Below the pieces are notes generated by a model. It did not search any database, was not told where the DNA came from, and saw only the letters and a list, made by a program, of their open reading frames with translations. A stretch of DNA of 64,000 nucleotides, taken from an uncultured delta proteobacterium. Lineage in GTDB: Bacteria > Desulfobacterota > RBG-13-43-22. Position 1 is the stretch's first letter. Each line of letters begins with the position of its first letter. Below, piece by piece: positions 953 through 56,840 of the stretch. The stretch spans positions 64,001-128,000 of the forward strand of contig CAVUPH010000033.1 of NCBI GenBank assembly GCA_963743305.1, given 5' to 3'. A program made the position numbers and the translations under genes.

Positions 953-961
953 AATTCTTCC

Positions 962-1414: not shown

Positions 1415-1468
1415 AGCCTCTGTTCCTGATCTCTCTCTTACTCCTAACGCTACGCTCTTTTTTTCACC

Positions 1469-2236: not shown

Positions 2237-2277
2237 TCGTTCCACCCTCCGTTCCGGCTTCAGTCCCGCACAGGCTT

Positions 2278-5403: not shown

Positions 5404-5447
5404 TTCTTTTTCCTTCTTCAGGTTTCTCGGGTTAATTTTCGGGTTAC

Positions 5448-6599: not shown

Positions 6600-6720
6600 G
6601 GTCTCTCTCAGTCCTTTTCCCGGGGCATAAGGGGATGTTTACCCTTTCTAATCCGAAAACGGTTTTCTAAATCGTTACCCGGCGGGCTATTAATTTCAGC
6701 CAAAAATTGAAAAGTTTCGG

Positions 6721-7272
6721 CTAGCCCTTCTTGGACACGGACATCCGGGCCGCAGTGTCCAGAACCTTCTCCAGGCCATATTTGTCCACCAATGATTCCA
6801 ACCCGATTTCCACGTCCTCTGCCTTCACCTCTTCTTCGACTTCCTCTTCCCTTTCTTCGTACGACAGGGCATTCACCAGGCACCACTTGACGCACAAGGG
6901 CTCCTTCTCGCCTTCACACATATCGCATTTCAGCGGAAGACCGGAATCGGGTTCCTTGAAAAGATCCCGGGAGGGGCAGGAAGAGCGGCAAAAAGCACAT
7001 TCGTCGTATTCCTTGCCGTCAATCACATATTTGTCCCGCCCCATACACTCGGCTTTAGCATTTTCGCCGGCGTAAACGGGAACATAAACGTCTTTCAGCG
7101 GTTCACGGATCACTCGAATACGGGACCTGGCCGGATTATTGCTACTATATTGGGGTGCCGCGTGAAAGGCGGAGCAGGCGACCTCGCAGGCTCGGCAACC
7201 GTTGCATTTATCCACATCGACCTTTATCGTTTTAACTATTTTCTTTTTCTTCTCACCCATGACGATACCCAC
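6721..7272 (-). CDS. bamC: BamC, Fe-S electron transfer subunit
   Basis: CNGCRACEVAC, CAFCRSSCP, KCDMC, PLCVKWC; directly downstream of bamB. Confidence 0.9.
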   Translation of the reverse strand: MGIVMGEKKKKIVKTIKVDVDKCNGCRACEVACSAFHAAPQYSSNNPARSRIRVIREPLKDVYVPVYAGENAKAECMGRDKYVIDGKEYDECAFCRSSCPSRDLFKEPDSGLPLKCDMCEGEKEPLCVKWCLVNALSYEEREEEVEEEVKAEDVEIGLESLVDKYGLEKVLDTAARMSVSKKG

Positions 7273-7297
7273 CTCTTCACTTTATTTCTCCAGCCAT

Positions 7298-9290
7298 TTA
7301 CGCCGAAGCCGCTTCAGATGGAGTCCCTTCGTTTTCCGTGTAGATCCCTCTCTTTTCAAAGTCTTCGCTCACGTAATCCAAACCCAATTCATGCAGGGAC
7401 TCTTTCGTGGGAATTCCCTCACTATTCCAACCCTTAAATTGGTAATAGGTATCTAAAAGCTCCTTTTCCAATTCGGGAAATCTTTTTTTCCAATGGTCTT
7501 CCGGCGGCTTATCATCTTTTCTCCTCAGGCCTCTGCGGATATTTATAGCCCTAACCAAAGTCCGGTACCTCTTGGTGGCTTGCGTCAGTTTGTCTTCATC
7601 CATTTCGATCCCGGCACCAGACGAGATAAATTTAGGGTAGTTATGTATATGATAGGGGGGCTTCAGGGGAAAGGATGACAAACCGGCGCACATCCCGAGG
7701 GCGTCATCAATGTAGTGCATCCGTTCCTGCCAATCGACAATGTCACAACACATTTGCACCGTGGGGTAGAAGGGCATGGATTTCTCCCCCCGGGGTTCCC
7801 AATCCAAAAAAATCTGCTTGAACTTTTCGTCCGGAACGTGAAACCAATCCTGGACAAAGGCCTCCCGCTCCTCCCGCGTCGGAAAAGGCGCCTGGGGGAA
7901 CTGCCCTTCAATTTGGGTGATGTTGATCTTTTCGCCGGTGGCATACATGAGGAAATAAATGGGATTGAGCATGGACAGCTTGAGGGGCAGTTGCTCGTGC
8001 TTTTTAATATTATTATGGGCATAGGCTTCCGCGCCCTTGCCGATCTGCCGGGCCGCCCAATAGGTGCCGTTGGCCAACACATCGCCGATCCCGTCCCGCC
8101 GAACGATGCGGTCCAATAACCAGTGAAATCTCCCTTCATTATCGGAAGGCATTCCGGGAAAGTCCTGATCAGTCAAAATGCCGGCTTCATAAAGCTCCAG
8201 GGCGAAGGCCATGACCTGGGGGGCGGAGAAGGCGTCCACCCCATACTCCGTGGCGCTTTGAGCGATACCCAACCCAAACTCCAGATCGGACATGGCCGCC
8301 ATGGTATAGGTAAGTTTCGAGAAGCATTTCATCATGTAGGTGGGCTGTCCCGGGGGCGCAATGGTGGCCCCGCAGGTCATCGGACAGTTGTAGCAACTGA
8401 TCAGCCGTCTCCGCATACTATCCAGGGTCTCCGCCCACTGGCTGGCGATCTCCTCGTTCCAAAAATCTTTGCGGCGGGTGCGGGAATTCCCCCACATGAA
8501 ATTTTCGGTGTGCCATTTTTCATCATGGACTTTCATCTCTTGCGGCGACCCCAGCCCGGCTAAAATGGGCATGACCCCGGGAACCGGATTTTCATTTCGC
8601 CATTTTATGTAGTTCAAAACTTCGTTGCACAGTCCCATGAATTCAGCCGGCCGGGCCACATTGATGTCCCGGGTTCCCCGCACGACTATAGCCTTGACGC
8701 CTTTGTCGCCCATCACGGCGCCTATGCCGCCCCGGCTGGCACTGGATCGGCCCTGCTCGATGGAAGCAAAATAGACCCTGTTTTCACCTGCCAGGCCGAT
8801 AGCCGCCACCTGGGCCTTGGGCTCCTTCAACTCCTGCCGAATTAGTTCCGCCGTTTCCACGGCGCCTTTACCCTTCAAATGAGCGGCATCCCGTATTTCC
8901 ACTTTATCATTGTTTATCCAGATATAGACCAGATGAGGGGACTTGCCGCGCAGGACCACTTTGTCATAACCGGCATACTTCAATTCCGGCGCCCAAAAGC
9001 CCCCCATCATGGAATAGGCCATTAATTGCGTCTGAGGGCGAAATGGTGGAAACGATGGTCCGATTACACCCGGTGGCCGGTGTCCCGCATAAAAGACCGG
9101 CGCCGAAGATCAGAAGATTATCAGGGGAAAAGGGTTCGGTTTCGGGGGGAACCCTATCCCATAAAAGCTTGGCGTTTGTCCCCAGGCCCCCCAGATAAAG
9201 TTCGGTGTCTCTCGGATCGGTTTCTACCCGCTCAATGTTTCCTCGGGATAGATCAATTTCTAAATTAAACCCCGTCTCGGCGTAACGCAT
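7298..9290 (-). CDS. bamB: BamB, tungstopterin active-site subunit of class II benzoyl-CoA reductase (AOR family); apparent +1 frameshift at 9036-9038
   Basis: MRYAETG start, SPQEMKVHDEKWHTENF, CYNCPMTC and MKCFSK motifs. Removing one C joins the two ORFs as STISPQTQLMAYSMMGG. Confidence 0.9.
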
Positions 9291-10265: not shown

Positions 10266-11129
10266 TCAGGGAAGATTTTTTATGGTCAGGGATTTCAAGC
10301 AGGGGGCGGCACAGTTTTTAGCTCCGGTCCAGAACCCTTGGGGGTCGTAACGACGGATAATCGCCAATTCTTCCGAGGTAGGGGCCGGGCTGATAGTGAT
10401 CTTCGAGGCTGTTTTCAGCTTCCAACCGGTTTGCGCGATGACGGTTTCCGGGGAAATGCCGGGATGCACTTGGCCTAGATAGGCCTCGCGGGTAGTTGGA
10501 TCGAAACGCAAGACCCCTAAAGTGGTGATGACCGCCGAGGGGCCACCACGGACAAGTCCCTGGCGGTTGCGCCAATCTCCGCCGTCACCAAACCCGGACG
10601 AGGTGATATAACTGACTTTTTCCACAAAGCGGCGTTTCTCATGGGTCATGATAATCAACAGCTTGCGGGCCAACGAAGCGATATCCCCGCCGCCGCCGCT
10701 GCCGGGGAGGCGAATCGGGCCTTTCGGCCCGCCCACCTGGGTGGTGTTTAAATTGCCGAACTTATCCACCTCCGCTCCACCGATAAAGCCGATATCTACC
10801 CTCCCTTTTTGTAGAAAACCCATGACCGTCAACATATCGCAGCACATGGTGGCCTGGAAGATATTGGGGGGATCCCCCATGGTGACCATGGGGCCGGCGG
10901 CTGGGATTTCTCTGATGACGCCGTTTTCAAAAAGACCGATCGCTCTCGGGGCATGGGTTATTTTGGCCAAAATAAAGGCCAGCAAGGGCAGCCGCATACC
11001 GACGAAAACCACGTCCCCGTCACAGATTTCCCGAGCAGCGATGGTGACCATCAGCTCGGCGGGGGTGTAGTCCCGTGAGGCGCAAGGCGCAAGGCGCGAA
11101 GCGTTTGATTTAGGGGGATACATTCCCAT
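10266..11129 (-). CDS. Family I CoA-transferase beta subunit (GctB/CatJ-like)
   Basis: VFVGMRLP, FENG, GFIGGAEVDKFGNLNTT, RLPGSGG motifs. Confidence 0.85.
   Translation of the reverse strand: MGMYPPKSNASRLAPCASRDYTPAELMVTIAAREICDGDVVFVGMRLPLLAFILAKITHAPRAIGLFENGVIREIPAAGPMVTMGDPPNIFQATMCCDMLTVMGFLQKGRVDIGFIGGAEVDKFGNLNTTQVGGPKGPIRLPGSGGGGDIASLARKLLIIMTHEKRRFVEKVSYITSSGFGDGGDWRNRQGLVRGGPSAVITTLGVLRFDPTTREAYLGQVHPGISPETVIAQTGWKLKTASKITISPAPTSEELAIIRRYDPQGFWTGAKNCAAPCLKSLTIKNLP
11078..11103. repeat. Heptamer tandem repeat (AGGCGCA)~3.7
   Basis: aggcgca aggcgca aggcgcg aagcg, in the 5' end of the CoA-transferase ORF. Confidence 0.7.
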
Positions 11130-13120: not shown

Positions 13121-14491
13121 TTACCAGCTCTTCCTGAGAATACCGACGGTCACATGCGATCCGACCCCTGCATGGGAGACCCAGAGGGCCTGCTTGCTTT
13201 TTTTCGGGATCTGCAGGCTCTTCCAGTCCCGGGGTTTGGTCTTGCCCCATTTTTTCCAGATCTTCGAGTCACCGTGAAACTGATCGTATTTTTGCTGCAA
13301 TTGCCAGAGGCACTCCACAGCCTGGAAGATGCCGGTGGCGCCCACGGCATGCATGGTCCCCAGCAATCCGCCGGACAAGTTGGAGGGACATTTCCCGCCG
13401 TAATAGGCGTCTCCCGATTCGATATACTCCTGTTCCTGGCCGTAAGGCCGGAGGCCGATATCGCCGTAGGTCTGAAGATCGCTGATGGTGAAGGCGTCAT
13501 GGAGTTCCACCAGATCCAATTCTTCCAGCGGGTCATGAATTCCGGCCATGCGATACGCTAAGTAAGCGGCAAAGCGAGCGGCCAGAAAACTCTCGAATCC
13601 CGGATAGCGGCTCCCTTCCTTCAGATAATTTTTATACATTCCCGGTTTTTCGTTGGGCAGCAGCGGGATTTCCATGTGGCGCCGGTCGGCCACCCGCAGG
13701 GTGTGGGAACCGCCGCAGATGAAGACCTCCACCGGGTGGTCGGTCAACTTGTAGGCCGTTTTTTCATCGCAGAGCAGGGCACAGGCCGAACCGACGCTCA
13801 TGGCGCAGCATTCCAGGAAGCGCAGGGGATAGGCCGACATGGGGCTGGCCAAGACCTCTTCCACGGTGTGCTTACCCGGTTGTTGCGCATAGGGGGAAGA
13901 GCAGGCATAGAGACGGTTTTTGACGGCGATCTTAGCCCGGGTGGTTTCCGATACATCGAAAGCCCAAGCAAAGCGGTTGGCCATGGCGGCATAATAAGCA
14001 GAATAGATGCGAGCCAGCCGGGTTTCAAAATCCTTGCAGGCGGCGGTAGCGATATAAAAATTTCCCGTCCGGGTATCGACTTCGTCCATCCGTTCCCAGC
14101 CGGCGGCCAGAGCCACGTCGGCATAGCCCGAGGCGACGGCCATGGCGGCGTTCAGGATGGTGGTTCCGCCGGTGGCCCCTCCGGTTTTGACTCCTACGTT
14201 AAACATAGGGTCCAGACCGAGATAATCATGAACCTTGGCCTCGCAGAGCAGTTGATCTTGGAAGTGATCGGCAAATTCGCCATAGGCGGCATAGTTGATC
14301 AGGCCCTTGACTTCCAGGGGGTCCATTTTAAGATTGTTATTTTCGAGCATTTGTTTGAAGGCCATCATGACCAGCTCTTCCAGTCTGTATTCCGGAAAAT
14401 ACTTTTTGTAGGCCGTCGTGCCCCCGGCGACCAAGAAGACCTTGCGATTCCATTTGGGAATCCTCAAATTACCCTTCTTGAATGTAATCAT
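13121..14491 (-). CDS. SCP2-type thiolase-fold protein lacking catalytic cysteines
   Basis: Thiolase fold motifs AKIAVKN, VELHDAF, NLSGGL, HAVGATG; the CxS site reads GGATG. Confidence 0.8.
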   Translation of the reverse strand: MITFKKGNLRIPKWNRKVFLVAGGTTAYKKYFPEYRLEELVMMAFKQMLENNNLKMDPLEVKGLINYAAYGEFADHFQDQLLCEAKVHDYLGLDPMFNVGVKTGGATGGTTILNAAMAVASGYADVALAAGWERMDEVDTRTGNFYIATAACKDFETRLARIYSAYYAAMANRFAWAFDVSETTRAKIAVKNRLYACSSPYAQQPGKHTVEEVLASPMSAYPLRFLECCAMSVGSACALLCDEKTAYKLTDHPVEVFICGGSHTLRVADRRHMEIPLLPNEKPGMYKNYLKEGSRYPGFESFLAARFAAYLAYRMAGIHDPLEELDLVELHDAFTISDLQTYGDIGLRPYGQEQEYIESGDAYYGGKCPSNLSGGLLGTMHAVGATGIFQAVECLWQLQQKYDQFHGDSKIWKKWGKTKPRDWKSLQIPKKSKQALWVSHAGVGSHVTVGILRKSW

Positions 14492-15947: not shown

Positions 15948-16184
15948 ATGTGCTTAGCTATACCGATGGAAGTCAAAGAGATCAGAGAGAACTGGGCCCT
16001 GGTGGAATATGAGGGGACCCGCCGGGAGGTTCGGCTGGATATTGTGGACCAGCGACCGGAGGTGGGGGATTATGTGATCATTCATGCCGGGTTCGCCCTG
16101 CACCGGATTGACGAGGACGAAGCCAAAATCAGTTTAGCCTACTGGAAGGAAATCCTGGCCCATGCCCCTGAAGCATTTGAGTGA
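15948..16184 (+). CDS. hypC: Hydrogenase maturation chaperone HypC
   Basis: MCLAIP N-terminus, GDYVIIHAGFA; AGGAGG RBS. Confidence 0.95.
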   Translation: MCLAIPMEVKEIRENWALVEYEGTRREVRLDIVDQRPEVGDYVIIHAGFALHRIDEDEAKISLAYWKEILAHAPEAFE

Positions 16185-17250
16185 ATACCGGGATAAAGAC
16201 CTGGCTCAGAAACTGATCGCCGCCATCCGGTCCGAATCCCGCAAACCGGCCCGTTTGATGGAGGTCTGCGGCACCCATACGGTTGCCATCTTCCGGCACG
16301 GCATCCGGCAATTACTGCCGCCGTCGATTCAACTTATTTCCGGCCCCGGCTGTCCGGTCTGTGTGACCGCCACCGAGGATATTGATCAGGCGATCAAGTT
16401 GGCGCGATTCCCGGAAGTGACGGTGACCTCCTTCGGTGACCTGCTCCGGGTCCCGGGTTCGAATTCCTCCCTGCAGCAGGAAAGGGCTGTCGGGGCCGAT
16501 GTCCGCATCGTTTATTCCACCTTTGACGCCCTGAAATTGGCCCAGGAAAACCCGGCGAAGAAGGTTGTTTTTCTGGCCATCGGTTTTGAAACCACGGCGC
16601 CCACCATTGCCGCCGCGGTGGCCGAAGCGGAGCGGTTGGACCTGAAGAATTTTTATATCCTGGCCGCGCACAAACTGCTCCCTCCGGCCTTGGGGGCCCT
16701 GCTGGGCCTGGGGGAGCTGAACCTCCAGGGGTTCATTTATCCGGGGCATGTGACGACCATTATCGGCACGGAAGCTTATGAAGGAGTGGCCCGGGAGTAT
16801 GGGATCCCCGGGGTGGTCTGCGGGTTTGAACCGGTGGATATCCTGGAGACGATCCTGATGCTGGTTCAACAGATCGAAAAGAATGAGGCTCGGGTGGAGA
16901 TCCAGTATAAGCGGGGGGCCACGGCCCAGGGAAATCCGAAGGCCAGGGAACTGTTGAATCAGGTTTTCGAACCCTGTTCGGCCATCTGGAGGGGCTTGGG
17001 CCCTATCCCGGAAAGCGGCCTGACCCTGAAACCGGCCTATCGTCGGTTTGCCGCCGAAGACGTTTTCGATCTGCAAGTCCCCCCGGCCAAGGACCATCCC
17101 GGGTGCGGCTGCGGGGAAGTGCTTCGCGGCATGATAACGCCCCTGGAATGCCCGCTCTTTCGAAAAGCCTGCACCCCTGAATCCCCCATCGGCCCCTGCA
17201 TGGTCTCCACCGAAGGCACCTGCGCCGCCTACTTCAAATACCACCAGTAA
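16162..17250 (+). CDS. hypD: Hydrogenase maturation protein HypD
   Basis: MEVCGTHT, GPGCPVC, GFETT, PGHV, GPCMVSTEGTCAA. Confidence 0.97.
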   Translation: MPLKHLSEYRDKDLAQKLIAAIRSESRKPARLMEVCGTHTVAIFRHGIRQLLPPSIQLISGPGCPVCVTATEDIDQAIKLARFPEVTVTSFGDLLRVPGSNSSLQQERAVGADVRIVYSTFDALKLAQENPAKKVVFLAIGFETTAPTIAAAVAEAERLDLKNFYILAAHKLLPPALGALLGLGELNLQGFIYPGHVTTIIGTEAYEGVAREYGIPGVVCGFEPVDILETILMLVQQIEKNEARVEIQYKRGATAQGNPKARELLNQVFEPCSAIWRGLGPIPESGLTLKPAYRRFAAEDVFDLQVPPAKDHPGCGCGEVLRGMITPLECPLFRKACTPESPIGPCMVSTEGTCAAYFKYHQ

Positions 17251-18155: not shown

Positions 18156-19142
18156 TTAAGATAGGATCTTTTTAAATTCCTCTTTTAACACCGGAACGAT
18201 CTCGAAAAGGTCCCCCACAATCCCGTAATCCGCCTTCTGGAAGATGGGAGCATCCGGGTCCTTGTTGATGGCCACGATGATTTTGGAGGAGCCCATGCCG
18301 GCCAGGTGCTGGATGGCTCCGGAGATGCCGCAGGCGATGTACATGTTGGGGCAGACCACCTTCCCGGTCTGGCCCACCTGATCGGTGTGAGGCCGCCAGC
18401 CGGCATCGACTGCCGAACGGGAAGCGCCGACACTGGCTCCAATAACGCCGGCCAGTTCCTCCAGGACCTGGAAGTTTTCCTCCGCCTTCATGCCCCGACC
18501 GCCGGAGACGATAAAGGTAGCCTCGGTCAGGTCGACCTTGCCGCTGGCATCGGCCAATGATTCAACCAAGGTCGTGCGTAAATCATCCGGCTTCAGCTCG
18601 ACCGGAACGGCGACGATCTCGGCCTGACGGCCGGGGTCCGGCTCCGCCACGGCCAGGACATTGGGCCGGGCCGCGGCCATCTGAGGCCGGGCGGTTTCAC
18701 AGGCCACGTCGGCATATACCTTGCCGGCATACAGAGGCCGTTTGGCGATCAACAGGCCGTTTTCCAGACGGAAGGACACGCAGTCCTGAGCCATTCCGGT
18801 CTCCAGACGAGCGGCCAGTTTGGCGGCCAGCTCTTTTCCCTGGGCGCTGGCGCCCAGGAGGACGATATCGGGCTCTTGTTTCTTGATCAAATCGGCCAGA
18901 ACAGCCGTATGGGCCTCCGGGGTATAGTCGGCCAAGGCCGGATCATCGACAACATAAAGGGTGTCGGGCCCATAGGGGATCAACTTCTTGGCCTCTTCTC
19001 CGATCTGAGAGCCGACGACGACGGCCGCCAAAGGCTGGCCCGACTGATCGGCCAACCGACGACCCTCGCTGGCTAATTCATACGATATCTTGCGCAGGGT
19101 TCCCCCGCGTTGTTCGGCTATAATCCAAATTCCGTTTGCCAT
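18156..19142 (-). CDS. etfA: Electron transfer flavoprotein alpha
   Basis: [26 protein letters not shown]. Confidence 0.97.
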
Positions 19143-19157
19143 GGTTTCTTCTCCTTG

Positions 19158-19955
19158 CTAAATAATTTTGGCTTCTTCCCGCAACAGCTTGACCAGACCG
19201 GCGCCTTTTTCCTGAGGCGTTTCCCCGGAAACGATCTGGCCGGCTTTCCGTTCCGGCGGCGGGGTTAACCCCAGGATCTTGATTTTGGAACCGGCTTCCC
19301 CGGCCTGGCTGGGATCCAACCCTAAATCAGCTAATTTTTTAGCGGCCAGGGGTTTCTTTTTGGCTTTCATGATCCCGGGAAGGGAGGCATAGCGGGGCTC
19401 GTTCAAACCTTTCTGGGTGGTAATCAGCGCCGGCAAGGTGGATTCCAAGACCCAGTTGGCCCCCTCAACGGAACGCAGGATGCGGACCTTGGTCTTGTCT
19501 TCGGAAAGGTCCACTTTGGTGGCCACCGATAACAAAGGGATATTCAATAATTCGGACAAAGCCGCCCCGACTTGGCCATTGTCATGGTCCACGGCCCTTT
19601 GTCCGCAGAAGACCAGGTCAAAAGGGACCGTTTTAATAGCGGCGGCCAAGGCCCGGGCGGTGGCCAGGGAATCCCCGCCGTCGGCGGCCGGGTCGTCGAT
19701 ATGAATGGCTTCATCGGCCCCCATGGCCAGGGCGGTGCGCAGGGATTCTACCACCCGCTGAGGTCCTAATCCGACGACGGTGACTTTTCCTCCGCCCGCC
19801 TTCTCTTTAAGACGCAGCGCTTCTTCCACACCGAATTCATCGTAGGGGTTCATCACCCATTTAATGTCGGCGGTTTGAATGCCCTTACCTCCGGAATCGA
19901 TCTTGATTTGCGCTTCCGTGTCCGGGACTTGTTTAATGCAGGCCAGTATGTTCAC
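19158..19955 (-). CDS. etfB: Electron transfer flavoprotein beta
   Basis: CIKQVPD, MNPYDEFGVEEAL, NEPRYASL. Confidence 0.97.
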   Translation of the reverse strand: MNILACIKQVPDTEAQIKIDSGGKGIQTADIKWVMNPYDEFGVEEALRLKEKAGGGKVTVVGLGPQRVVESLRTALAMGADEAIHIDDPAADGGDSLATARALAAAIKTVPFDLVFCGQRAVDHDNGQVGAALSELLNIPLLSVATKVDLSEDKTKVRILRSVEGANWVLESTLPALITTQKGLNEPRYASLPGIMKAKKKPLAAKKLADLGLDPSQAGEAGSKIKILGLTPPPERKAGQIVSGETPQEKGAGLVKLLREEAKII

Positions 19956-45392: not shown

Positions 45393-46403
45393 TTAACAGA
45401 TGCGCGGCAGTTGCTCCCCGGTCAACATGTCGATCAGCCGCCGTCCGCCGATGGCGGTTTTCATAAATACCAGGCCGGGGTTATCCCCGAGTACCCGCCC
45501 GATCCGGGCGGCCCCCCGACCATAGGGGTGCTGCCGCATGGCTGTCAATAATCGATCCGCTTCGGTCGGGGGGGCGACGGCCACCAGTTTCCCCTCATTG
45601 GCCAGGTACAAGGGGTCCAATCCCAGTATTTCGGCCGCGGCCTGGACCTCGTTGCTGACGGGCAGGGAATCTTCCCATATTTCCATTGATACCTGGGATT
45701 GCTGAGCGATTTCGTTTAAAGTGGTGGCCAATCCCCCGCGGGTGGGGTCCCGGAGGACATGGAGGTCCGGGCAAACGGCCAGGAGGGCCTTAACCAGGCC
45801 GTTTAAGGGGGCCACATCGCTTTGCAGCGAAGAGTCAAAGGCCAATCCTTCCCGTTTGGAAAGAATGGTCATCCCGTGGTCTCCCAGAGTCCCGCTGACC
45901 AGGAGAACGTCCCCCGCCCGGGCATTCTGGCCGGCCACCTCGACGCCCGGGGGGATCAGGCCGATCCCGGCGGTGTTAATGAAAATCTTGTCGACATTGC
46001 CTTTGGGAACCACCTTGGTGTCCCCGGTGACCACCTGGACACCGGCCTGCCGGGCTGCTTCGCCCATGGACCGCAGGAGGCGCTCCAGATCAGACAATAA
46101 GAAACCCTCCTCCAGGATGAAGGCCAGGCTTAAATAACGGGGATCGGCTCCACGCATAGACAAGTCGTTTACCGTACCGCAGACGGCCAGAGAGCCGATG
46201 TCTCCGCCCGGGAAGAAGATGGGGTCTACCACGTAACTATCGGTGGTGAAAGCCAGACGGACCCCCCCTAGGTCCAGAGAGGCGCTATCGTTTAAATCAT
46301 TCAGAAAAACGTTTTGAAAATAAGGGAGAACGGTTTCGGCAATCAAGTCGTGAGAAGAGCGGCCCCCGCTGCCATGGTCAAGCATTATTCTATTTCCAGC
46401 CAT
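45393..46403 (-). CDS. hypE: Hydrogenase maturation protein HypE
   Basis: HGSGG, TTDSYVV, DPTRGG, C-terminal PRIC. Confidence 0.97.
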   Translation of the reverse strand: MAGNRIMLDHGSGGRSSHDLIAETVLPYFQNVFLNDLNDSASLDLGGVRLAFTTDSYVVDPIFFPGGDIGSLAVCGTVNDLSMRGADPRYLSLAFILEEGFLLSDLERLLRSMGEAARQAGVQVVTGDTKVVPKGNVDKIFINTAGIGLIPPGVEVAGQNARAGDVLLVSGTLGDHGMTILSKREGLAFDSSLQSDVAPLNGLVKALLAVCPDLHVLRDPTRGGLATTLNEIAQQSQVSMEIWEDSLPVSNEVQAAAEILGLDPLYLANEGKLVAVAPPTEADRLLTAMRQHPYGRGAARIGRVLGDNPGLVFMKTAIGGRRLIDMLTGEQLPRIC

Positions 46404-48666: not shown

Positions 48667-48752
48667 GGTTTTTTGGTGGCGAATATTCGTGAAACAGTAA
48701 TAATTTCGAGGCGTTATTAGAAAGGGCCGACGGGCTGAATATAGGGGCCAAA

Positions 48753-48799
48753 TAAAAAAGCCGAAGACCCGCCTTTTCCGGCAGACTTCGGCTTTATTT
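48753..48799 (-). terminator. Rho-independent terminator after hesB-like gene
   Basis: aaagccgaag...cttcggcttt stem with a U-tract on the minus strand. Confidence 0.75.
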
Positions 48800-48811
48800 G
48801 ATGAAATACGG

Positions 48812-49132
48812 CTAACAACTACAAGAAGTACCGCAGGTTCCTCCACCGCCCAAGCTGACATCCGAAGTAACCATAAATCCCGAACGTCCCCATTGGTCTA
48901 CAAAATCCACTTTTATTTCTTTGGCCTGCTCCTCCAAACTCTTATCGACTACATAGGTCAGGCCGTTAATTTCAAATACGTTGTCCGTCTCTTTAGACTC
49001 ATCCAGAGCCAAGGCCAAGGAAGGCCCTGATCAGCCACCTTGACTTAAAAAAATACGGATGGGCGAGTTCACATTTTGTTTGGAAAAATAATCTTTAAAT
49101 GCACTTTGAGCCTGTTCGGTTACCGTTAACAT
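48812..49132 (-). CDS. HesB/IscA-like selenoprotein (Sec at codon 34, TGA 49031-49033), 106 aa
   Basis: GAGGG RBS; MLTVTEQA...IRIFLSQGG-TGA-SGPSLALALDE in frame with 48812..49018; C-terminal CGTSCSC. Confidence 0.88.
48996..49010 (-). promoter_or_regulatory. Candidate SECIS of hesB-like gene
   Basis: GGCUC-UGGAU-GAGUC starting 21 nt after the UGA. Confidence 0.5.
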
Positions 49133-49224: not shown

Positions 49225-50124
49225 TCAAGAACTGGAAGCGATTTGTTTTAAAATCGGCTCCAAACTGATTCGGTGGTCATTAAGCCCCAATAGGTTTCTA
49301 TCCAGGCCGAAGGCCAGTCCGATAAGCTGGGAGATATGGAAAGCGGGGAGATTAAACCCGTCGTGATACTTACGTTCCAACATCATTTGCCCCCGATCAA
49401 ACTGGGAAAAACAGGAAGGGCAGCCTACGGCAATGGCCTGGATATGATGCTTTCTCATGTGGCTGAGTTTTTCCCGGGTAATTTCGTTGGCCGCTTCCTG
49501 ATCAATATTGGTCCCTAAAGCCGATCCGCAGCAGAGGAATTTTCGGGAATATTCTATCGGTTCGGCGCCTAACAAAGACAGGATCTGGTCCATGCTTTTG
49601 GGTACATAACTGTCGGCTTCTGATAAATTTTCCGGGTACATCAGCCGGGGCGGGCGGTAGAGGTGACAGCCGTAATGGCAGCCGATCCGGACCCGACTCA
49701 ACGAGTGAACGGCCCGCTCGCCCAGTCGAGCCAGGCCCAGGTCGTCAACCAGGACGTCCAGGAGGTGCTTGACTTTAATGGTTCCTTGATAGCTATGACC
49801 GAATTCCTGCAGCAGGCCGTTGACCTGGTTTTTTCGCTGGGGATCCTTTTTTAAGGCCAGGTTGGCCTCCTTCAAGGTATTCACGCAACCGTTGCAGATG
49901 GAGATGATGTTGACTCCGGCCTCTTCGGCCAGACAGAGATTTCGGGCCGCTAAGGCCAGCCAACTGTCGAAGTGGACCAGTTTCAGTTGGGTCGGAGCCG
50001 GGCAGCAGGAAAAAGGCAGGTCCAGCAGTTCCACGTCCAAGGCCTGGAGCACCTCGCGGGTGGCCTTTTCAAAGCCCGGATACTTCACCGGGATCACACA
50101 GCCTAAAAAGAGTGCATATTTCAT
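49225..50124 (-). CDS. hdrB: Heterodisulfide reductase subunit B-like
   Basis: FLGC, SCCP, ICNGC, HYGCH, CCG, CPSC. Confidence 0.9.
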   Translation of the reverse strand: MKYALFLGCVIPVKYPGFEKATREVLQALDVELLDLPFSCCPAPTQLKLVHFDSWLALAARNLCLAEEAGVNIISICNGCVNTLKEANLALKKDPQRKNQVNGLLQEFGHSYQGTIKVKHLLDVLVDDLGLARLGERAVHSLSRVRIGCHYGCHLYRPPRLMYPENLSEADSYVPKSMDQILSLLGAEPIEYSRKFLCCGSALGTNIDQEAANEITREKLSHMRKHHIQAIAVGCPSCFSQFDRGQMMLERKYHDGFNLPAFHISQLIGLAFGLDRNLLGLNDHRISLEPILKQIASSS

Positions 50125-50125
50125 C

Positions 50126-50596
50126 TTAACTCAGTTCGATGACCTCGTTCAATCCGGTTTTTCTAAGAAGGCCCTCAATTTCGTCCACCGCCAGAGGACC
50201 CAGGGGGGGCAGGGCCAGCCTCTTCCGGTCGCGATGAACCTTGTCCGATATCACCAGGGTCCGGCCGGTCTTGGCCACCAGGTCCACTCCAAATTTAATT
50301 TTCTCGGGCAGATTCCCCCGTTGAGCGGCCAGGTTACAGATGGCCGTCAGCAGATCGGAGATATGAATTTCCTGGGGACAGCGGTCTTCGCAAACCTGGC
50401 AGGTAGTACAGTACCAGATGCGTTCATCGTTGATCACCGCCTCCTGACCCAGATTCAAGCAGCGCAAGAGGGTCTCCCGGGGGCCATAGGAATGGTCCAG
50501 GACCATGGCCGCCGGACAGCTCCCGGTACACCGGGCGCACTGATAGCATTCAAAGAGGTCTTCCTTGTTGAACATTTCCCAGATGCTTTTGATCAC
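50126..50596 (-). CDS. hdrC: Heterodisulfide reductase subunit C-like
   Basis: CYQCARCTGSCP, CTTCQVCEDRCP. Confidence 0.9.
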   Translation of the reverse strand: MIKSIWEMFNKEDLFECYQCARCTGSCPAAMVLDHSYGPRETLLRCLNLGQEAVINDERIWYCTTCQVCEDRCPQEIHISDLLTAICNLAAQRGNLPEKIKFGVDLVAKTGRTLVISDKVHRDRKRLALPPLGPLAVDEIEGLLRKTGLNEVIELS

Positions 50597-53046
50597 CTTA
50601 ATAATCCCTCACCCGTCTTTTTCTCTTTTTTTTCGGGGACCAGAACGGCCTTGGTTTTTTCAATTTCCTCCCGGGTCACCGTCCCGATAATTTCGTCTAT
50701 TTCTTTGATCTTTTTGGAAAACTGAAGGCCCTCGGCCGCGCTGATCCAGGCCAGTTGGAGACGGTTCTGGTCCAGGCCCAGGCGCTCCATTTTTTTCCAG
50801 ACCTTCTTCACCCGTTTTTCGGTCTGATGGTTCGCATGGATATAGTGGCAGTCCCCGATATGGCATCCGGAAACCAGAACGGCGGCCGCCCCCCGGCGAA
50901 AGGCGGTTTCAATAAATCGGGTGCTGATGCGACCGGAGCACATGGTGCGGATGATGCGCACCGACGGCGGATACTGCATGCGGCTGACGCCGGCAAAATC
51001 GGCGCCGGCGTAGGAGCACCAGTTACAGCAGAAGGCCACCGCCTTTTTCTCGGGATCTTCTTCGGTGATGGCCTCGATCTGGGCCAGGATTTGCGCATCG
51101 GTAAAATGCCGCTGGCTGAGCGCCCCGAAAGGACACTCGGCCACGCAGGTCCCGCAGCCGGCGCAGGAGGCCTGGGTGACGGCCACGATTTTGGTTTCCG
51201 GGTCCTGGCGGATGGCGGAATAAGGGCAGACTTTGACGCACATCCCGCAGCCCTGGCACAGATCCTCATCGACCTGGGCGGTAATGGCCTCCACCATGAC
51301 CTTGCCTTGGGACATGAGAATGTTGGCCCGGGAAGCGGCGGCACAAGCTTGGGTGACGGAATCCTTGATGTCCTTGGGGCCTTCGGCGCAACCGGCCAAA
51401 AAGATGCCGCCGGTGGGCGTGTCCACCGGCCGCAACTTGGGATGGGCCTCCAGAAAAAAACCGTCCGAACCGGTGGACAGGTTCAAAAGCCGCTGGATAA
51501 CCGGGCTGTCCTTGCGCGGTTCGATCCCTACGGAAAGTATAGCCAGGTCCGCTTCATAGCGGTAGAGCTGGGAAAGAAGGGTGTTCTCCCCGATGAGCGT
51601 CAGGTTATGCGATTCGGGGTCCTCGATGATTTCCCCGGGGACCCCCCGAATGAAGGAGATCCCCTCCCGGCGCGCCCGCTGAAATAAATCCTCAAAGCCT
51701 TTGCCGAAGGCCCGAATATCAATATAAAAAACGACGACCTTGGTTTCGGGCCAGTGTTCCTTGATCAGCAGGGCGTCCTTAATGGTGTTCATGCAGCAGA
51801 TATTGCTGCAGTAGATATTGGAACGCTTGGAGCGGGAACCGATGCATTGCAGGAAAGCCACTGTCTTGGGGATCCGCCGGTCGGAGGGACGGATGAGATT
51901 ACCCCCGGAAGGGCCCCCGGCGTTGATCAGCCGTTCGAACTCCAGGCTGGTGATGACATTGGGGAACTTCCGGTAACCGAATTCGGTCAGGGAAGTGGGG
52001 TCGTACACGTCCACGCCGGTGGCGACGATGATGGTGCCCACCTCCAGGTGCAGGATGCGGTCTTTATCGGCATAGTCGATGCACCGCTTTTGACAGGCCT
52101 GGGAACAACGGTCGCAGGCCACGATGCCGTGCTTATTCAGGCAGAGGTCCATGTCGATACGGAAAGTGGAAGGCACGGCCTGGGCAAAAGAGCGGTAGAC
52201 GGCCCGGCGCATGGACAGACCGGCATTGAACTCATCCGGAGCCACCTGGGGGCAGACCTGAGTGCAATCCCCGCAGGCGGTGCAGGAATCCTTGACGTAG
52301 CGGGCCTGCCGGCGGACCTGGACCTGAAAGTTGCCTATGTAGCCGTCCACCTGTTCCACGTCGCTCAAGGTCAACAGTTCGATATTGGGGTGGCGGCCGA
52401 CCTCCGACATTTTGGGGGCCAGGATACAGATGGAGCAGTCCATGGTGGGGAAGGTCTTGTCGATCTGGGCCATGCGGCCGCCGATGCTGGATTCCTTTTC
52501 CACCAGATACACCTGATAACCGCTGTTGGCCAAATCCAGAGCCGCCTGGATCCCGGCCACTCCACCCCCGATCACCAGGGCCTTACGGTGCACCGGCACT
52601 TCCAGTTCCTGCTGGGGGGCCAGGAGCCGGGCCCGGGCCACCGCCATTTTGACCAAATCCTGCGCTTTGAGGGTCGCCCCTTCCTTGTCGTGGAGATGCA
52701 CCCAGGAGCAGTGTTCCCGGATATTGGCCATTTCAAACAGGTAGGGATTCAAGCCGGCGTCCTGGCAGGCGGTTCGAAAGGTGGGTTCATGGAGGCGCGG
52801 CGTGCAAGAGGCCACCACCACCCGATTGAGCCGCTGTTCGCGGATATCCTGCTTGATTTCTTCCTGGCCCGGATCGGAGCAGGTGTATAAATTACTCTTG
52901 GAGAGAACCACGCCGGGCAGGGCGGCCGCGTATTCAGCCACTCGAGCACAGTCCACCACGGCGCCGATATTCAGGCCGCACTGGCAGACGTACACCCCGA
53001 CCCGCGATTCTTCCTTGTCTTTTCTGTGAACTTTCTTGGCGGCCAA
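50593..53046 (-). CDS. hdrA: HdrA fused to a C-terminal MvhD domain (all-Cys version)
   Basis: GVYVCQCG, GGGVAG, DCSICILAPK, CSNICC, GKGFE, HPKLRP, then CCNWCSYAGAD and TMCSGR. Confidence 0.92.
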   Translation of the reverse strand: MAAKKVHRKDKEESRVGVYVCQCGLNIGAVVDCARVAEYAAALPGVVLSKSNLYTCSDPGQEEIKQDIREQRLNRVVVASCTPRLHEPTFRTACQDAGLNPYLFEMANIREHCSWVHLHDKEGATLKAQDLVKMAVARARLLAPQQELEVPVHRKALVIGGGVAGIQAALDLANSGYQVYLVEKESSIGGRMAQIDKTFPTMDCSICILAPKMSEVGRHPNIELLTLSDVEQVDGYIGNFQVQVRRQARYVKDSCTACGDCTQVCPQVAPDEFNAGLSMRRAVYRSFAQAVPSTFRIDMDLCLNKHGIVACDRCSQACQKRCIDYADKDRILHLEVGTIIVATGVDVYDPTSLTEFGYRKFPNVITSLEFERLINAGGPSGGNLIRPSDRRIPKTVAFLQCIGSRSKRSNIYCSNICCMNTIKDALLIKEHWPETKVVVFYIDIRAFGKGFEDLFQRARREGISFIRGVPGEIIEDPESHNLTLIGENTLLSQLYRYEADLAILSVGIEPRKDSPVIQRLLNLSTGSDGFFLEAHPKLRPVDTPTGGIFLAGCAEGPKDIKDSVTQACAAASRANILMSQGKVMVEAITAQVDEDLCQGCGMCVKVCPYSAIRQDPETKIVAVTQASCAGCGTCVAECPFGALSQRHFTDAQILAQIEAITEEDPEKKAVAFCCNWCSYAGADFAGVSRMQYPPSVRIIRTMCSGRISTRFIETAFRRGAAAVLVSGCHIGDCHYIHANHQTEKRVKKVWKKMERLGLDQNRLQLAWISAAEGLQFSKKIKEIDEIIGTVTREEIEKTKAVLVPEKKEKKTGEGLLR

Positions 53047-53076
53047 CCCGGTAACTCCTTTAATAAAGCCTTGGTA

Positions 53077-53658
53077 TTAGCTGACTAGCGACTGAACGCC
53101 GCCGGCTGCAGTCAATTGTTTTCCGTAGGCATACCCTTTTTCGAAGGCCTTGAGGTTCAATTCCTCGGTTCCCCGGGGGATGGAATCGAAGAGGGCCTGT
53201 TTCATGGCTTCGTAGCCGACCACCTCGGTCACAGAGGTGATAAACCCCAGCATGACGATATTGGCCACGATCTTCCGCCCCAGCTTTTCGGCAAACCGGG
53301 TGGCGGGGATTTTGAACAAGCGGGAGCCCTCCGGGGCCGAATCCAACTGGACCAGATCCTCATCGATCAGGACCGTGGAATGACCCGCTAACCCGCTTCC
53401 GTAGGTATTTTTGGCCTCCTCGGACATGAGGACCAGAATCTCCGGGTGGGTTACCCGAGGATAATGAATCTCCCCCCGGGAGAGGACCACATCGGCGCTG
53501 CAGGCGCCTCCCCGGGCCTCCGGGCCGTAACTCTGGGTAAAAACCGCATTGAGGTGCTCGAACAAGGCGGCGGCCTTGCCCAGGACCTGGCCGGCCAGGA
53601 CGATCCCCTGGCCGCCGAAGCCCGCCAGTCGGATTTCTGTTTTTGTATCGGTACTCAT
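53077..53658 (-). CDS. korC: 2-oxoacid:ferredoxin oxidoreductase gamma
   Basis: AGFGGQG, SYGPEARGG, NIVMLG. Confidence 0.88.
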   Translation of the reverse strand: MSTDTKTEIRLAGFGGQGIVLAGQVLGKAAALFEHLNAVFTQSYGPEARGGACSADVVLSRGEIHYPRVTHPEILVLMSEEAKNTYGSGLAGHSTVLIDEDLVQLDSAPEGSRLFKIPATRFAEKLGRKIVANIVMLGFITSVTEVVGYEAMKQALFDSIPRGTEELNLKAFEKGYAYGKQLTAAGGVQSLVS

Positions 53659-53739
53659 TGGAATAAGTCGCCCGTAGTTAGGATCTATAATTCCGAAATT
53701 CGGCTTTGTCGGGTCTTACCAAAAGTCAAATAGTTGTGG

Positions 53740-54636
53740 TTAGATTTCCCGTTTAAATTTGCTTAAAATATTTTCCTGGTAGAGTTCGTCAAAGGTCGGC
53801 CGGCTTTGATCAATAAATTTTCCGACGATGATTTTCCCCTTCAGGCTAATGTCCGCTTCACGGGGGTCCGTGTCGTTTTGAACCAGGCTGTTCTCCCGAT
53901 AAAACTTCATTTCGTCCAGGCCGCTGCCCAGTTTGTTCGGTCGCCCGTAACCGATGGGGCAGGGGGAGATGACTTCGATGAAGGTAAACCCCTTTTTAGT
54001 CAGGCTTTCCGCGATGGAGGTGACCAGATGCCGGGCATGAAAGGTGGTCCAGCGGGCCACGTATACCGCCCCGCTGGCATAAGCCAGAAAGGGCAGGTTG
54101 AAGGAATGCTCGAAATTGCCGTAGGGGGTGGTGGTGGTCCGGGCCGTCACCGGGGTCGTGGGGGCCGCCTGACCGCCGGTCATGCCGTAATTGAAATTAT
54201 TGACGCAGATGATCTTCAGATTGATGTTTCGCCGGGCGGCATGAATGAAGTGATTGCCGCCGATGGCGAAGAGGTCCCCGTCACCGCTGAAAACCGTTAC
54301 CGCCAGGTCCGGCCGAACCAGGGCCAGGCCGGTGGCGAAGGGGATGGCCCGCCCGTGGGTGGTGTGATACGTGTCCATATCCAGATAACCGGCCACCCGG
54401 CCCGTACAGCCGATTCCGGAAACCACCGCCGTCTGGTCCACCTGCAGGCCGGCCGTCTTCAGCCCGTTGATGTAGGTATTCAGGACCACCCCCAGCCCGC
54501 AGCCCGGACACCAGATATGGGGGATGCGGCCCGGCTTTAAATAGATATCGTCAGGATGGAAACCATGCTGCTCCTCCCTGAGGCGGCGGCTGGTCTGAGG
54601 GTCATAGGGGACTAGGGGTTGAAAGCGGATTTTCAT
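53740..54636 (-). CDS. korB: 2-oxoacid:ferredoxin oxidoreductase beta
   Basis: WCPGCG, SGIGC, THGRA, GDGD TPP motif, YGMTGGQ. Confidence 0.9.
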   Translation of the reverse strand: MKIRFQPLVPYDPQTSRRLREEQHGFHPDDIYLKPGRIPHIWCPGCGLGVVLNTYINGLKTAGLQVDQTAVVSGIGCTGRVAGYLDMDTYHTTHGRAIPFATGLALVRPDLAVTVFSGDGDLFAIGGNHFIHAARRNINLKIICVNNFNYGMTGGQAAPTTPVTARTTTTPYGNFEHSFNLPFLAYASGAVYVARWTTFHARHLVTSIAESLTKKGFTFIEVISPCPIGYGRPNKLGSGLDEMKFYRENSLVQNDTDPREADISLKGKIIVGKFIDQSRPTFDELYQENILSKFKREI

Positions 54637-55823
54637 ACCAGCGTTTCCTTAACGGCCTCGATGATCTCGGCGGGGGTGTGGATCGATCCGCCCATGAGAG
54701 GCAGCAGTATCGTTTCCGCCCGACCCTGGGCGCAGCGCTCCACCTCGTAGGCCATCTGGCCGTAATTGATTTCCGGGACGATAAAGGCCTTGACCCGCGC
54801 GGAGATTTCTCTGATCTCTTCTTCCGGAAAGGGCCAGAGGGTGATGAGACGCAGCAGTCCGACTTTTTCTCCGGCCTGCCGGAGATCGGTAACCGCCTCC
54901 CGGGCGGCCCGGGCGGTACACCCATAGGCTACGACCACCACCTCGGCCTGCTCCAGGCCGAGGGCTTCGGTCTGGATGATCTTGGCCGCGTTCAGACGGA
55001 TTTTATCCACCAGCCTCCGGACCAGGCGTTCATGGGTCGCCGCCGTAATGACCGGGTAACCCTGTTCGTCGTGGGTCAACCCGGTGACATGGACATGGTA
55101 GCCATCCCCGGCACAGGCCATGGAAGGAACCAGGTCCTCCCCGGCCAGAAAAGGGAGATAGCACTCCCGGGTCTGATCCGGACGTTGGCGGGCAACCAAC
55201 TGAATCTGTTCCGCCGGCGGGATAATTACTTTTTCGCTCATGTGCCCCACCATCTCATCCCCCAAAACAAAAACGGGCAAACGGTAGGTTTCCGACAGAT
55301 TGAAGGCCGTAACGGTCAAATCAAACATTTCCTGAGGGGAGGAAGGGGAGAGGGCAATCACCCCATAGTCCCCATGCGAACCCCAGCGGGCCTGCATGAC
55401 GTCCGCCTGGCCGACCAGGGTGGGCAACCCGGTGGAGGGACCGGCGCGCATAATATTCACTACCACACAGGGAGTCTCGGTCATCATACCCAACCCGATA
55501 TTTTCCATCATCAGGGAAAAACCCGGACCGGAGGTGGCGGTCATGGCCTTCACCCCGCCCCAGGAGGCCCCCAGGATGGCCGCCATGGAAGCGATTTCGT
55601 CTTCCATCTGGATGCACATCCCTTGCACCTGGGGGAGTCGCTTGGCCAGTCGTTCGGCGATTTCGGTGGCCGGGGTGATGGGATAACCGGCAAAAAAGCG
55701 ACACCCGGCGGCGATGGCACCCTCGGCGCAGGCTTCATCGCCGTTGATAAAAAATTCACCTGTTAAGAATCCTGGAATGGACATGGTCCTGTTGCTTTCC
55801 CGATCTTCCGCTCCCGGGTTCAA
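54633..55823 (-). CDS. korA: 2-oxoacid:ferredoxin oxidoreductase alpha (start may be ATG 55784)
   Basis: YPITP, QMEDEIA, TSGPG, RAGPSTGLPT. Confidence 0.9.
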   Translation of the reverse strand: MNPGAEDRESNRTMSIPGFLTGEFFINGDEACAEGAIAAGCRFFAGYPITPATEIAERLAKRLPQVQGMCIQMEDEIASMAAILGASWGGVKAMTATSGPGFSLMMENIGLGMMTETPCVVVNIMRAGPSTGLPTLVGQADVMQARWGSHGDYGVIALSPSSPQEMFDLTVTAFNLSETYRLPVFVLGDEMVGHMSEKVIIPPAEQIQLVARQRPDQTRECYLPFLAGEDLVPSMACAGDGYHVHVTGLTHDEQGYPVITAATHERLVRRLVDKIRLNAAKIIQTEALGLEQAEVVVVAYGCTARAAREAVTDLRQAGEKVGLLRLITLWPFPEEEIREISARVKAFIVPEINYGQMAYEVERCAQGRAETILLPLMGGSIHTPAEIIEAVKETLV

Positions 55824-55850
55824 AACGGGGGGAGATCCGCCGGAGGGGGG

Positions 55851-56162
55851 TTACACTCCGAATTTCTTGGAATAATTAATGATGTCCTCGGCGGTTAATT
55901 CTTTGTACTCTTTCAGCTCACTGTAGATGGCAAATTCCGGGCAGATTATTTCACAGAGGTTGCAATTTACGCACTCCCCTTGCTTGGTGACCAAGGGGGG
56001 GTGATAGCCCTTTTTATTAAATTCGGAGGATTCCTTGAGGACCTGGTTCGGGCAGAACTCAATGCAAAAGTTGCACCCCTTGCAGCGGTCCTTGATAATA
56101 TGCAATTCCCCGATCGGTATGGAGTGGGAAGAGGCATCTAATGGAAGTCTCCAAAATTTCAT
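55851..56162 (-). CDS. korD: 2-oxoacid:ferredoxin oxidoreductase delta, 2[4Fe-4S]
   Basis: CKGCNFCIEFCP, CVNCNLCEIICPEFAI. Confidence 0.88.
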   Translation of the reverse strand: MKFWRLPLDASSHSIPIGELHIIKDRCKGCNFCIEFCPNQVLKESSEFNKKGYHPPLVTKQGECVNCNLCEIICPEFAIYSELKEYKELTAEDIINYSKKFGV

Positions 56163-56330
56163 CGTGTTACCAATAAATAAGAAAATAAAGCTTTACCTTG
56201 TAATAATTTCCGGCCTGTTTGTCAATAAGAATCTCCGCGACTATTTTCCAGGCAAATCCTTCCGCCGGTGAAGGCCGAATCCCGCTAACCCGGAATCCCC
56301 GGCTGGGGGAGTCGATGCGAAAAGCAATAA

Positions 56331-56840
56331 TCAGCTCAGGGAGGATAGCAATTCGGACGCTCGATCCCGGACCTCCTCGTCCTCGGCCAGCGCGGACAGG
56401 GTGCGCAGCTTGCTTAGGAAGGCCTGCTGTTCCCGAGGGGAACGCGTGGGATGCTGTCGGGCCATCCGATCGAGACTGCCGTTCGAAATAGCGGGGTCGG
56501 GAAAGTCCAGAAAAAGGAAGAGCAGGCCCCAGTCTCGGGGCAGGCCGTATTCTTTGACATACTCTTTGACCAGGGGGGGGAATTTTTTGCCTCCGAAATT
56601 TTGGTGCAGGGCGTCCGCCAGCTTCTGATGGGCCGGGGTCCCTTGCTTGCCCTCAAAAACCTTATGCGCCTCCTGGAGCGCCCGCTGGCGCATCCGTTCC
56701 GCCCGGGGGCTTCCCGGTCGGACCGCCGGCCGCTCTCCTCGGGAGACGTGACGGCTGCCGTCCCGCCGCTGGTCGATTTCTCGCCAGGAGAGCCGCTCCC
56801 GTTCGGAGGAATCGTTATTTCGCGGGGTCACCCGGCTCAC
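56331..56840 (-). CDS. Hypothetical protein
   Basis: SWREIDQRRD; overlaps the pfk stop. Confidence 0.6.
   Translation of the reverse strand: MSRVTPRNNDSSERERLSWREIDQRRDGSRHVSRGERPAVRPGSPRAERMRQRALQEAHKVFEGKQGTPAHQKLADALHQNFGGKKFPPLVKEYVKEYGLPRDWGLLFLFLDFPDPAISNGSLDRMARQHPTRSPREQQAFLSKLRTLSALAEDEEVRDRASELLSSLS

Follow-up and report, generated by a model that had tools for sequence, protein, structure and literature searches.

Synthesis of 2-oxoglutarate, at about -500 mV, is among the hardest redox steps of anaerobic carbon metabolism. Here we analyse seven genes, korD-korA-korB-korC-hdrA-hdrC-hdrB, all located by open reading frame (ORF) and domain searches on the minus strand (49225-56162) of a 64-kb stretch of DNA from an uncultured delta proteobacterium (hereafter the window). 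We favour, at a probability of roughly 0.55, the reading that these genes form a single operon and would encode one functional module, in which a bifurcating HdrABC-MvhD core of the heterodisulfide reductase (Hdr) type is dedicated to a 2-oxoglutarate:ferredoxin oxidoreductase (Kor). Among described systems, korABCD is interspersed with flxABCD-hdrABC and tfrAB in the reductive tricarboxylic acid (TCA) gene clusters of tubeworm symbionts (Ca. Endoriftia and the Escarpia symbiont) and of Thioflavicoccus mobilis, for which direct electron delivery to the oxoglutarate enzyme was proposed in 2019 (PMC6315080, accessible text). Co-expression of that kor/flx-hdr cluster was reported in 2024 (PMC11636981, accessible text), and a 2026 survey describes, in the portion of it available to us, no such co-location in the other autotrophs that it studied (PMC13147460).

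With the tubeworm-symbiont clusters, as the available text of PMC6315080 presents them, the window cluster shares the placement of kor directly beside or interleaved with hdrABC and the proposed delivery of low-potential electrons to 2-oxoglutarate:ferredoxin oxidoreductase. Unlike them, it holds no flxABCD, tfrAB, aclAB or other reductive-TCA genes and no donor module within the operon, and it has MvhD fused to HdrA, a full methanogen-type HdrA complete with N-terminal domain, and a cysteine at HdrA residue 207 (Cys207). The tubeworm-symbiont type of arrangement does occur in the window's phylum, at a locus (L102) that falls in the same KorA group as the Hdr-linked sequences described below. 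The window HdrA, HdrB, HdrC and MvhD also align over their whole lengths with the subunits of the methanogen MvhAGD-HdrABC supercomplexes with Fmd or Fwd (5odc, 7bkb, 8rvu, 9sw2; PMC13518236, as far as its accessible text goes), and in the window too a ferredoxin-dependent CO2-handling enzyme is encoded beside Hdr, as Fwd is at locus L021 (below). Unlike the methanogen Mvh-Hdr-Fwd system, the window system is bacterial, has no hydrogenase or formate dehydrogenase, holds Kor in the place of Fwd and carries MvhD as a fusion. The HdrA-MvhD fusion with HdrB and HdrC partners is shared with HdrA2B2C2 of Methanosarcina acetivorans; unlike there, F420 biosynthesis is unsupported in our genome, and kor linkage is not described in the accessible parts of the two papers on that enzyme (PMC6085437, PMC12054007). 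Finally, the FlxABCD-HdrABC of Desulfovibrio (cited in the available text of PMC6315080) is likewise a soluble Hdr of a bacterium with presumed bifurcating activity, its acceptor being unknown or a protein disulfide; unlike that system, the window operon has no Flx subunits, and a separate flx-hdr-like cluster lies on another contig (C7) of the genome. We found no description of a Flx-less kor-hdrA(mvhD)-hdrCB cluster in a literature search that covered main texts outside subscription journals. As far as the accessible sources go, the hydrogenase-less, Flx-less, Cys-type minimal form is new, and the idea of Kor-Hdr coupling was itself published in 2019 (PMC6315080) and is so far purely hypothetical.

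A sequence-only reading of this DNA had placed korD-A-B-C and then hdrA(mvhD)-C-B on one strand, with 30 bp between korC and hdrA and with overlapping or abutting hdr genes, and had seen no hydrogenase, Fdh or Flx gene among them. Coordinates together with domain searches bear out the arrangement: korA and korB overlap by 4 nt, korB and korC are separated by 81 nt and korC and hdrA by 30 nt, hdrA and hdrC overlap by 4 nt, and a single nucleotide lies between hdrC and hdrB. Domain and NCBIfam searches likewise detected no Flx gene within the operon and no gene for a hydrogenase or formate dehydrogenase either within it or next to it.

The four kor genes encode the full set of subunit domains of a four-subunit 2-oxoacid:ferredoxin oxidoreductase, and we assign korDABC to that class on domain content. 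The delta subunit gene korD (55851-56162; 103 amino acids) predicts a ferredoxin-like protein with two [4Fe-4S] clusters (Pfam Fer4 families), in which two CxxCxxCxxxCP motifs, CKGCNFCIEFCP and CVNCNLCEIICP, can be read in the translation behind an N-terminal WRLPLD; its OGOR_delta score is 63.8 bits, below the cut-off of 125. The alpha subunit gene korA (54633-55823; 396 amino acids when read from a TTG) carries POR_N and PFOR_II domains and passes the generic model NF006412 (578.7 bits versus a cut-off of 411), and it scores 403 bits with the 2-oxoglutarate-specific NCBIfam model, for which the cut-off is 579. Its nearest solved alpha chains are 1yd7_A (E 1.3e-126), 8ys5_A and 6n2n_A, and since the alignments of relatives begin at about residue 13-20, translation more probably starts from the ATG at 55784 (residue 14). 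The beta subunit gene korB (53740-54636; 298 amino acids) predicts a thiamine pyrophosphate-binding protein with a TPP_enzyme_C domain (NF007207, 241 bits, below the cut-off of 364), and the gamma subunit gene korC (53077-53658; 193 amino acids) has a POR domain (NF006323, 224 bits, slightly under the cut-off of 235). The substrate of this enzyme is probably 2-oxoglutarate, which we favour because TCA-cycle genes neighbour the cluster in relatives.

The hdrA gene (50593-53046; 817 amino acids, TTG start) is of the HdrA2 type, scoring 1231 bits with NF040770 (cut-off 1100), and the protein is a full-length canonical HdrA: residues 12-660 align with residues 2-649 of 5odc_A (E 2e-244), and the N-terminal domain, the FAD domain and the inserted and C-terminal ferredoxin domains are all present. 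Fused to its C-terminal side is the [2Fe-2S] adaptor MvhD (FlpD domain at residues 670-787; about residues 666-787, corresponding to nucleotides 50686-51051), of which residues 666-784 match 5odc_D (E 7e-42). The motifs GKGFE (residues 448-452) and HPKLRP (residues 535-540), which the sequence-only reading had described as kept in HdrA, can indeed be seen in the translation, and a comparison with 17 relatives shows little variation, the majority of the motif positions being invariant. At the position of Cys207, most relatives carry an in-frame stop (45 high-scoring segment pairs, listed as TGA, selenocysteine). This protein is the only full-length HdrA in its genome, which is 90% complete. Downstream, hdrC (50126-50596; 156 amino acids) predicts a protein with two [4Fe-4S] clusters (9sfi_E and 5odc_C, E about 1e-24; TIGR03290, 108 bits, below the cut-off of 160), and hdrB (49225-50124; 299 amino acids) a putative catalytic subunit with two CCG domains that matches 5odc_B over its full length (E 1.8e-72; TIGR03288, 285.8 bits, below the cut-off of 345). 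Because these NCBIfam equivalog scores fall under their cut-offs, the two proteins are classed here as HdrB-like and HdrC-like, not as certified CoB-CoM enzymes. Taken as predicted proteins, the alignments show the methanogen-type HdrA, HdrB, HdrC and MvhD architecture kept nearly complete.

The genome survey of kor-hdr adjacency that the sequence-only reading had called for was then run, and the adjacency is not unique to the window genome but conserved across many phyla. A search with HdrA, taking one genome per species, led to 78 fetched loci, of which 37 bear kor, counted where the same strand holds two or more of korA, korB and korC; all 37 are within the 60 loci with an HdrA identity to ours of 54% or more. 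Most of the 23 loci of that identity without kor are cut by contig ends, and where both flanks reach at least 6 kb, kor is present at 20 loci and absent from 3. The remaining 18 loci, which are more distant (Clostridia, 45-51% identity), hold hdrB-hdrC-hdrA and no kor. The kor-bearing loci span about 13 phylum-level labels, although labels of metagenome-assembled genomes (MAGs) may err; among them are Thermodesulfobacteriota, Spirochaetota, WOR-3, Planctomycetota, Calditrichota, Gemmatimonadota, Zixibacteria, Acidobacteriota, Chloroflexota, Krumholzibacteriota and the archaeal label Bathyarchaeia.

The linkage recurs among 300 sampled genomes of the window's phylum: for 41 of 50 listed full-length fused HdrA matches (at least 57% identity), KorA is encoded on the same strand of the same contig, at most 10 kb away. 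For six of the other nine, KorA is on another contig and HdrA at most 5.2 kb from a contig end; two have no KorA match (with 1.7 and 7.3 kb of contig upstream), and one has no KorA on its contig. Eight of these nine stand 0.4-7.3 kb from a contig end. Within the window's own family, this HdrA is held by 9/9 other genomes and the KorA by 8/9. No Hdr gene stands in the fetched flanks of 15 control loci from the same phylum, whose kor operons are of lower identity (49-57%), nor beside the closest kor paralogue of the window genome itself. We rejected chance adjacency of kor and hdr on these synteny counts and on the recurrence across phyla; the pairing probably represents one working unit. In the same sample, two fused HdrA2 matches (G129:C71:3966-6365 and G264:C1:320037-322433) lie in a 1308-aa open frame, and HdrA2 may there be fused to a further module.

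The Kor proteins that stand beside Hdr are themselves distinctive. On a tree of 63 KorA sequences, 43 of them Hdr-linked and the unlinked ones chosen from lower-identity hits, all 43 linked sequences fall on one side of a branch, away from the window genome's own paralogues, and the observed pattern of linkage needs fewer changes than any of 500 label shuffles. The enclosing clade, which includes four unlinked sequences, has 99% support by the Shimodaira-Hasegawa-like approximate likelihood ratio test (SH-aLRT). KorD carries a matching signature, W[RKH]xPLD, about 20 residues ahead of the first cluster motif, in 30 of 40 linked proteins and in none of 14 unlinked ones, and most linked KorD proteins without the exact signature carry near variants. 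Distances among KorA and among HdrA sequences are correlated (Mantel r 0.54; 0/999 permutations as high). As far as sequence comparison reaches, the tree and the KorD signature show a separate Kor lineage that travels with Hdr.

Six cluster architectures were distinguished among the relatives. Architecture 1, korDABC-hdrA2-hdrC-hdrB, is the window form, which three families of the window's phylum and one MAG labelled Spirochaetota also have; architecture 2, korDABC-hdrC-hdrB-hdrA2, occurs in WOR-3 and at one Bathyarchaeia locus. In architecture 3, found in Bathyarchaeia and others and without hdrB, a protein of about 500 residues, whose Fe-S head resembles HdrC and whose NAD(P)H flavoprotein body resembles GltD, is encoded beside hdrA2 and korDABC. 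Architecture 4 (Planctomycetota and many others) begins with korDABC and the gene of a large HdrA-like protein, the N-terminus of which is GltD-like at some loci; mvhD, an HdrD-like gene and a selenocysteine hdrA2 come next, and in many cases hdrC-hdrB after them. Architecture 5 (locus L098) places hdrC-hdrB-hdrA(unfused)-korDABC within a reductive-TCA gene cluster, with genes for an ATP-citrate-lyase-like protein, isocitrate dehydrogenase (Icd), malate dehydrogenase (Mdh) and fumarase on one side and for a TfrA-like flavoprotein and succinyl-CoA synthetase (SucCD) on the other. Architecture 6 (L102) has korD-korA-hdrA, then mvhD-containing, Fer4_22 and NAD-binding (Flx-like) genes, and then korB-korC-hdrC-hdrB. 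Citrate synthase and malate dehydrogenase adjoin the cluster at locus L020, and at a few other loci ORFs of the same two families, assigned by family membership only, do so. At locus L021 (5982-15743), in a MAG labelled Undinarchaeales, the order is fwdA-fwdC, the HdrC/GltD-like NAD(P)H protein, hdrA2(mvhD), fwdDB and fwdA, all fwd genes scoring over their NCBIfam cut-offs and no hydrogenase gene occurring among the ORFs scanned; as judged from gene content, formylmethanofuran dehydrogenase there takes the place held elsewhere by Kor.

In the mechanism that we propose for the favoured module, a mid-potential donor from a partner outside the operon would dock at the fused MvhD domain, and its electrons would be split at the HdrA flavin. 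From the HdrA flavin the low-potential electron would cross the ferredoxin domains of HdrA and reach KorD and Kor, either directly or by way of ferredoxin, to drive succinyl-CoA + CO2 -> 2-oxoglutarate, and the high-potential electron would pass via HdrC to HdrB and reduce a disulfide; the reactions are reversible, so that the same machine could operate oxidatively. We favour Kor on the low-potential arm because of the reductive-TCA context of architecture 5, because Fwd replaces Kor at L021 and the solved methanogen complexes have Fwd/Fmd bound to Hdr, and because architectures 3, 4 and 6 have separate NAD(P)H input modules. The sequence-only reading had offered a possibly undescribed coupling with two options, Hdr-generated electrons driving reductive carboxylation or oxoacid oxidation feeding disulfide reduction. 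The L098 and L021 contexts favour the first option, and the word undescribed is too strong in view of what the available text of PMC6315080 already proposes.

Several points weigh against the module as we read it or qualify it. The minimal operon encodes no donor module, so that the bifurcation is not closed on paper. Oxidation of 2-oxoacids is the thermodynamically easy direction, and many carriers of the cluster look like heterotrophs. The Mvh-like hydrogenase sets on contigs C14 and C5 of the genome and the flx-hdr-like cluster on C7 each carry their own MvhD and HdrA- or HdrD-like genes, so that an unlinked donor is no more than possible. The 2-oxoglutarate-specific NCBIfam models for the alpha, beta and delta subunits all score under their cut-offs, so that the substrate is not fixed by them. 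The exact split between linked and unlinked KorA has only 71% SH-aLRT support, with the unlinked sequences drawn from lower-identity hits, and a correlation of KorA and HdrA distances is also expected from shared ancestry alone. The queries used matched no ATP-citrate lyase (query from L098), citrate synthase or malate dehydrogenase in the 90%-complete genome, in which isocitrate dehydrogenase, fumarase and succinyl-CoA synthetase were matched. A full reductive TCA cycle is thus not supported in the window genome, and Kor-Hdr would here serve a branched pathway, for example the supply of 2-oxoglutarate, and not a full reductive cycle.

We know of no purified enzyme of Kor-Hdr composition. If the favoured reading is true, a dedicated bifurcating Hdr on Kor would be a general answer to the supply of low-potential electrons for 2-oxoglutarate synthesis in bacteria that lack a strong low-potential source, in a linkage that spans many phyla of uncultured anaerobes and Bathyarchaeia. 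The window version would be attractive for biochemistry, with seven genes, no extra modules and Cys207 where most relatives need selenocysteine, and such an enzyme would bear on what bacterial HdrB reduces. DsrC-type logic from sulfate reducers was set aside here: DsrA reaches only 35 bits (cut-off 393), sulfate reduction is improbable in this organism, and DsrC logic is therefore not obviously applicable.

A bolder form of the same idea, which we hold only tentatively, is that the seven proteins assemble into a Kor-Hdr supercomplex that is self-contained and would wire the 2-oxoglutarate/succinyl-CoA couple directly to the bifurcating flavin, with no free ferredoxin involved. This would be the minimal core of a cross-domain family that joins a CO2-handling enzyme to HdrA-MvhD, with Kor and Fwd as interchangeable low-potential modules, with HdrCB, GltD-like proteins and Flx as interchangeable partners, and with a bacterial thiol/disulfide carrier that closes the cycle.

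The same complex might instead run with Kor as the donor, a rival version to which we give about one chance in four: 2-oxoglutarate or another 2-oxoacid would be oxidised, and electrons would pass from KorD to the MvhD domain and be split at the HdrA flavin between the HdrB disulfide and ferredoxin or, in the GltD-like forms, electrons from Kor would merge with those of NAD(P)H towards another acceptor. The MvhD domain stands where the MvhAG hydrogenase feeds in methanogens, and the operon encodes no other donor or MvhD partner; by established thermodynamics the oxidation is the favourable direction, and the Bathyarchaeia-type HdrC/GltD-like protein that replaces HdrC and HdrB would be in keeping with a 2-oxoacid/NAD(P)H machine in fermenters. 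The reductive-TCA context of L098 and the exchange of Kor for Fwd at L021, however, point to Kor at the low-potential exit, and the variants with NAD(P)H input (Flx-like at L102, GltD-like at L020 and L023) already have a donor.

It is less probable still, and in our judgement unlikely, that Kor and Hdr are physically independent enzymes, co-transcribed merely for a shared ferredoxin pool. Each is complete by domain content, and gene order varies by lineage, with kor before hdrA, after it or 1.4-7 kb from it; yet a dedicated Kor lineage and its KorD signature go with Hdr where the other kor operons of the phylum do not, and at L102 hdrA and the flx-like genes are placed between korA and korB. 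We consider it very improbable that the enzyme is an F420H2-dependent HdrA2B2C2 like that of Methanosarcina acetivorans and that kor adjoins it for reasons of another kind: the HdrA-MvhD fusion does pass the NF040770 HdrA2 model and such an activity has been reported (PMC6085437, PMC12054007, accessible text), but F420 was set aside as a donor on finding, in the 90%-complete genome, no CofD match (0), CofH-like proteins at 347 and 342 bits under a cut-off of 374 and a single FrhB-like gene, located elsewhere, and this reading leaves the conserved kor linkage unexplained.

As to transcription, the 30-nt spacer between korC and hdrA (53047-53076) contains a Shine-Dalgarno sequence, AAAGGAG, 8 nt ahead of the hdrA TTG start, and no terminator-like site was found in it. 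The TTGACA that the sequence-only reading had noted upstream of korD is present (56220-56225, minus strand), as a possible -35 box; the promoter scan did not call a sigma-70 promoter there, the best -10 at 17 nt being a weak TACAAG. Two metatranscriptome runs hold contigs 90-95% alike, which represent relatives and not the window strain, in libraries that DNA can contaminate. Among the matches listed, one such contig spans hdrB-hdrC-hdrA (49910-51034) and another korC/korB, and no piece bridges the korC/hdrA junction. Starting 92 nt past hdrB is an IscA/HesB-family selenoprotein gene (48812-49132, minus strand; NF038090 IscA_HesB_Se, 131.2 bits, cut-off 85) with an in-frame TGA at 49031-49033 (residue 34); the closest fetched relative that reaches that far (L053) has the same gene with the same TGA after hdrB. 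The supply of Fe-S clusters may be what links it to the Kor-Hdr operon. A hairpin resembling a selenocysteine insertion sequence 3' of this TGA was no better than shuffles (z -0.18). An intrinsic-terminator-like hairpin with a U run follows (48750-48800, minus strand; minimum free energy -28.5 kcal/mol, z -4.97, 0/200 shuffles as good), and because this strong hairpin comes after the IscA/HesB-type gene, the transcription unit probably extends from korD to that gene. On the other side, a 169-aa Arg/Glu-rich ORF without a family match (56331-56840, minus strand) ends 168 nt before korD and has a 4-nt overlap with the stop of the phosphofructokinase gene upstream. Rfam searches and tRNA gene searches gave 0 matches each in the 64-kb window.

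The genome as a whole is unusually rich in Hdr-type and 2-oxoacid oxidoreductase modules, with 14 MvhD-domain matches (4 with an in-frame TGA or TAG) and 9 POR_N matches, and on contig C14 a SelB gene adjoins the hydrogenase-MvhD-HdrD-like set. The window itself contains the hydrogenase maturation genes hypD (16162-17250, plus strand) and hypE (45393-46403, minus strand), 28 kb apart, and no hydrogenase structural gene. Near its start lies a class II benzoyl-CoA-reductase-like gene string (83-9022, minus strand throughout), which we provisionally take to be bamB-H-like after the Bam genes of Geobacter. It comprises an AOR-family tungsten-enzyme-like gene (7298-9022) followed by a 183-aa ORF, and genes for an HdrD-like CCG protein (5448-6599) and a 914-aa HdrA-like protein (2278-5022). 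Next in the string come an MvhD gene (1835-2206), which contains an in-frame TGA, and genes resembling NuoE (962-1414) and NuoF (83-952), the latter truncated by the ORF call. Close to this string, also on the minus strand, are genes for electron-transfer flavoprotein alpha and beta (18156-19955), a thiolase-like protein (13121-14491) and a CoA-transferase (10266-11129), a set consistent with an aromatic- or fatty-acid-degrading anaerobe.

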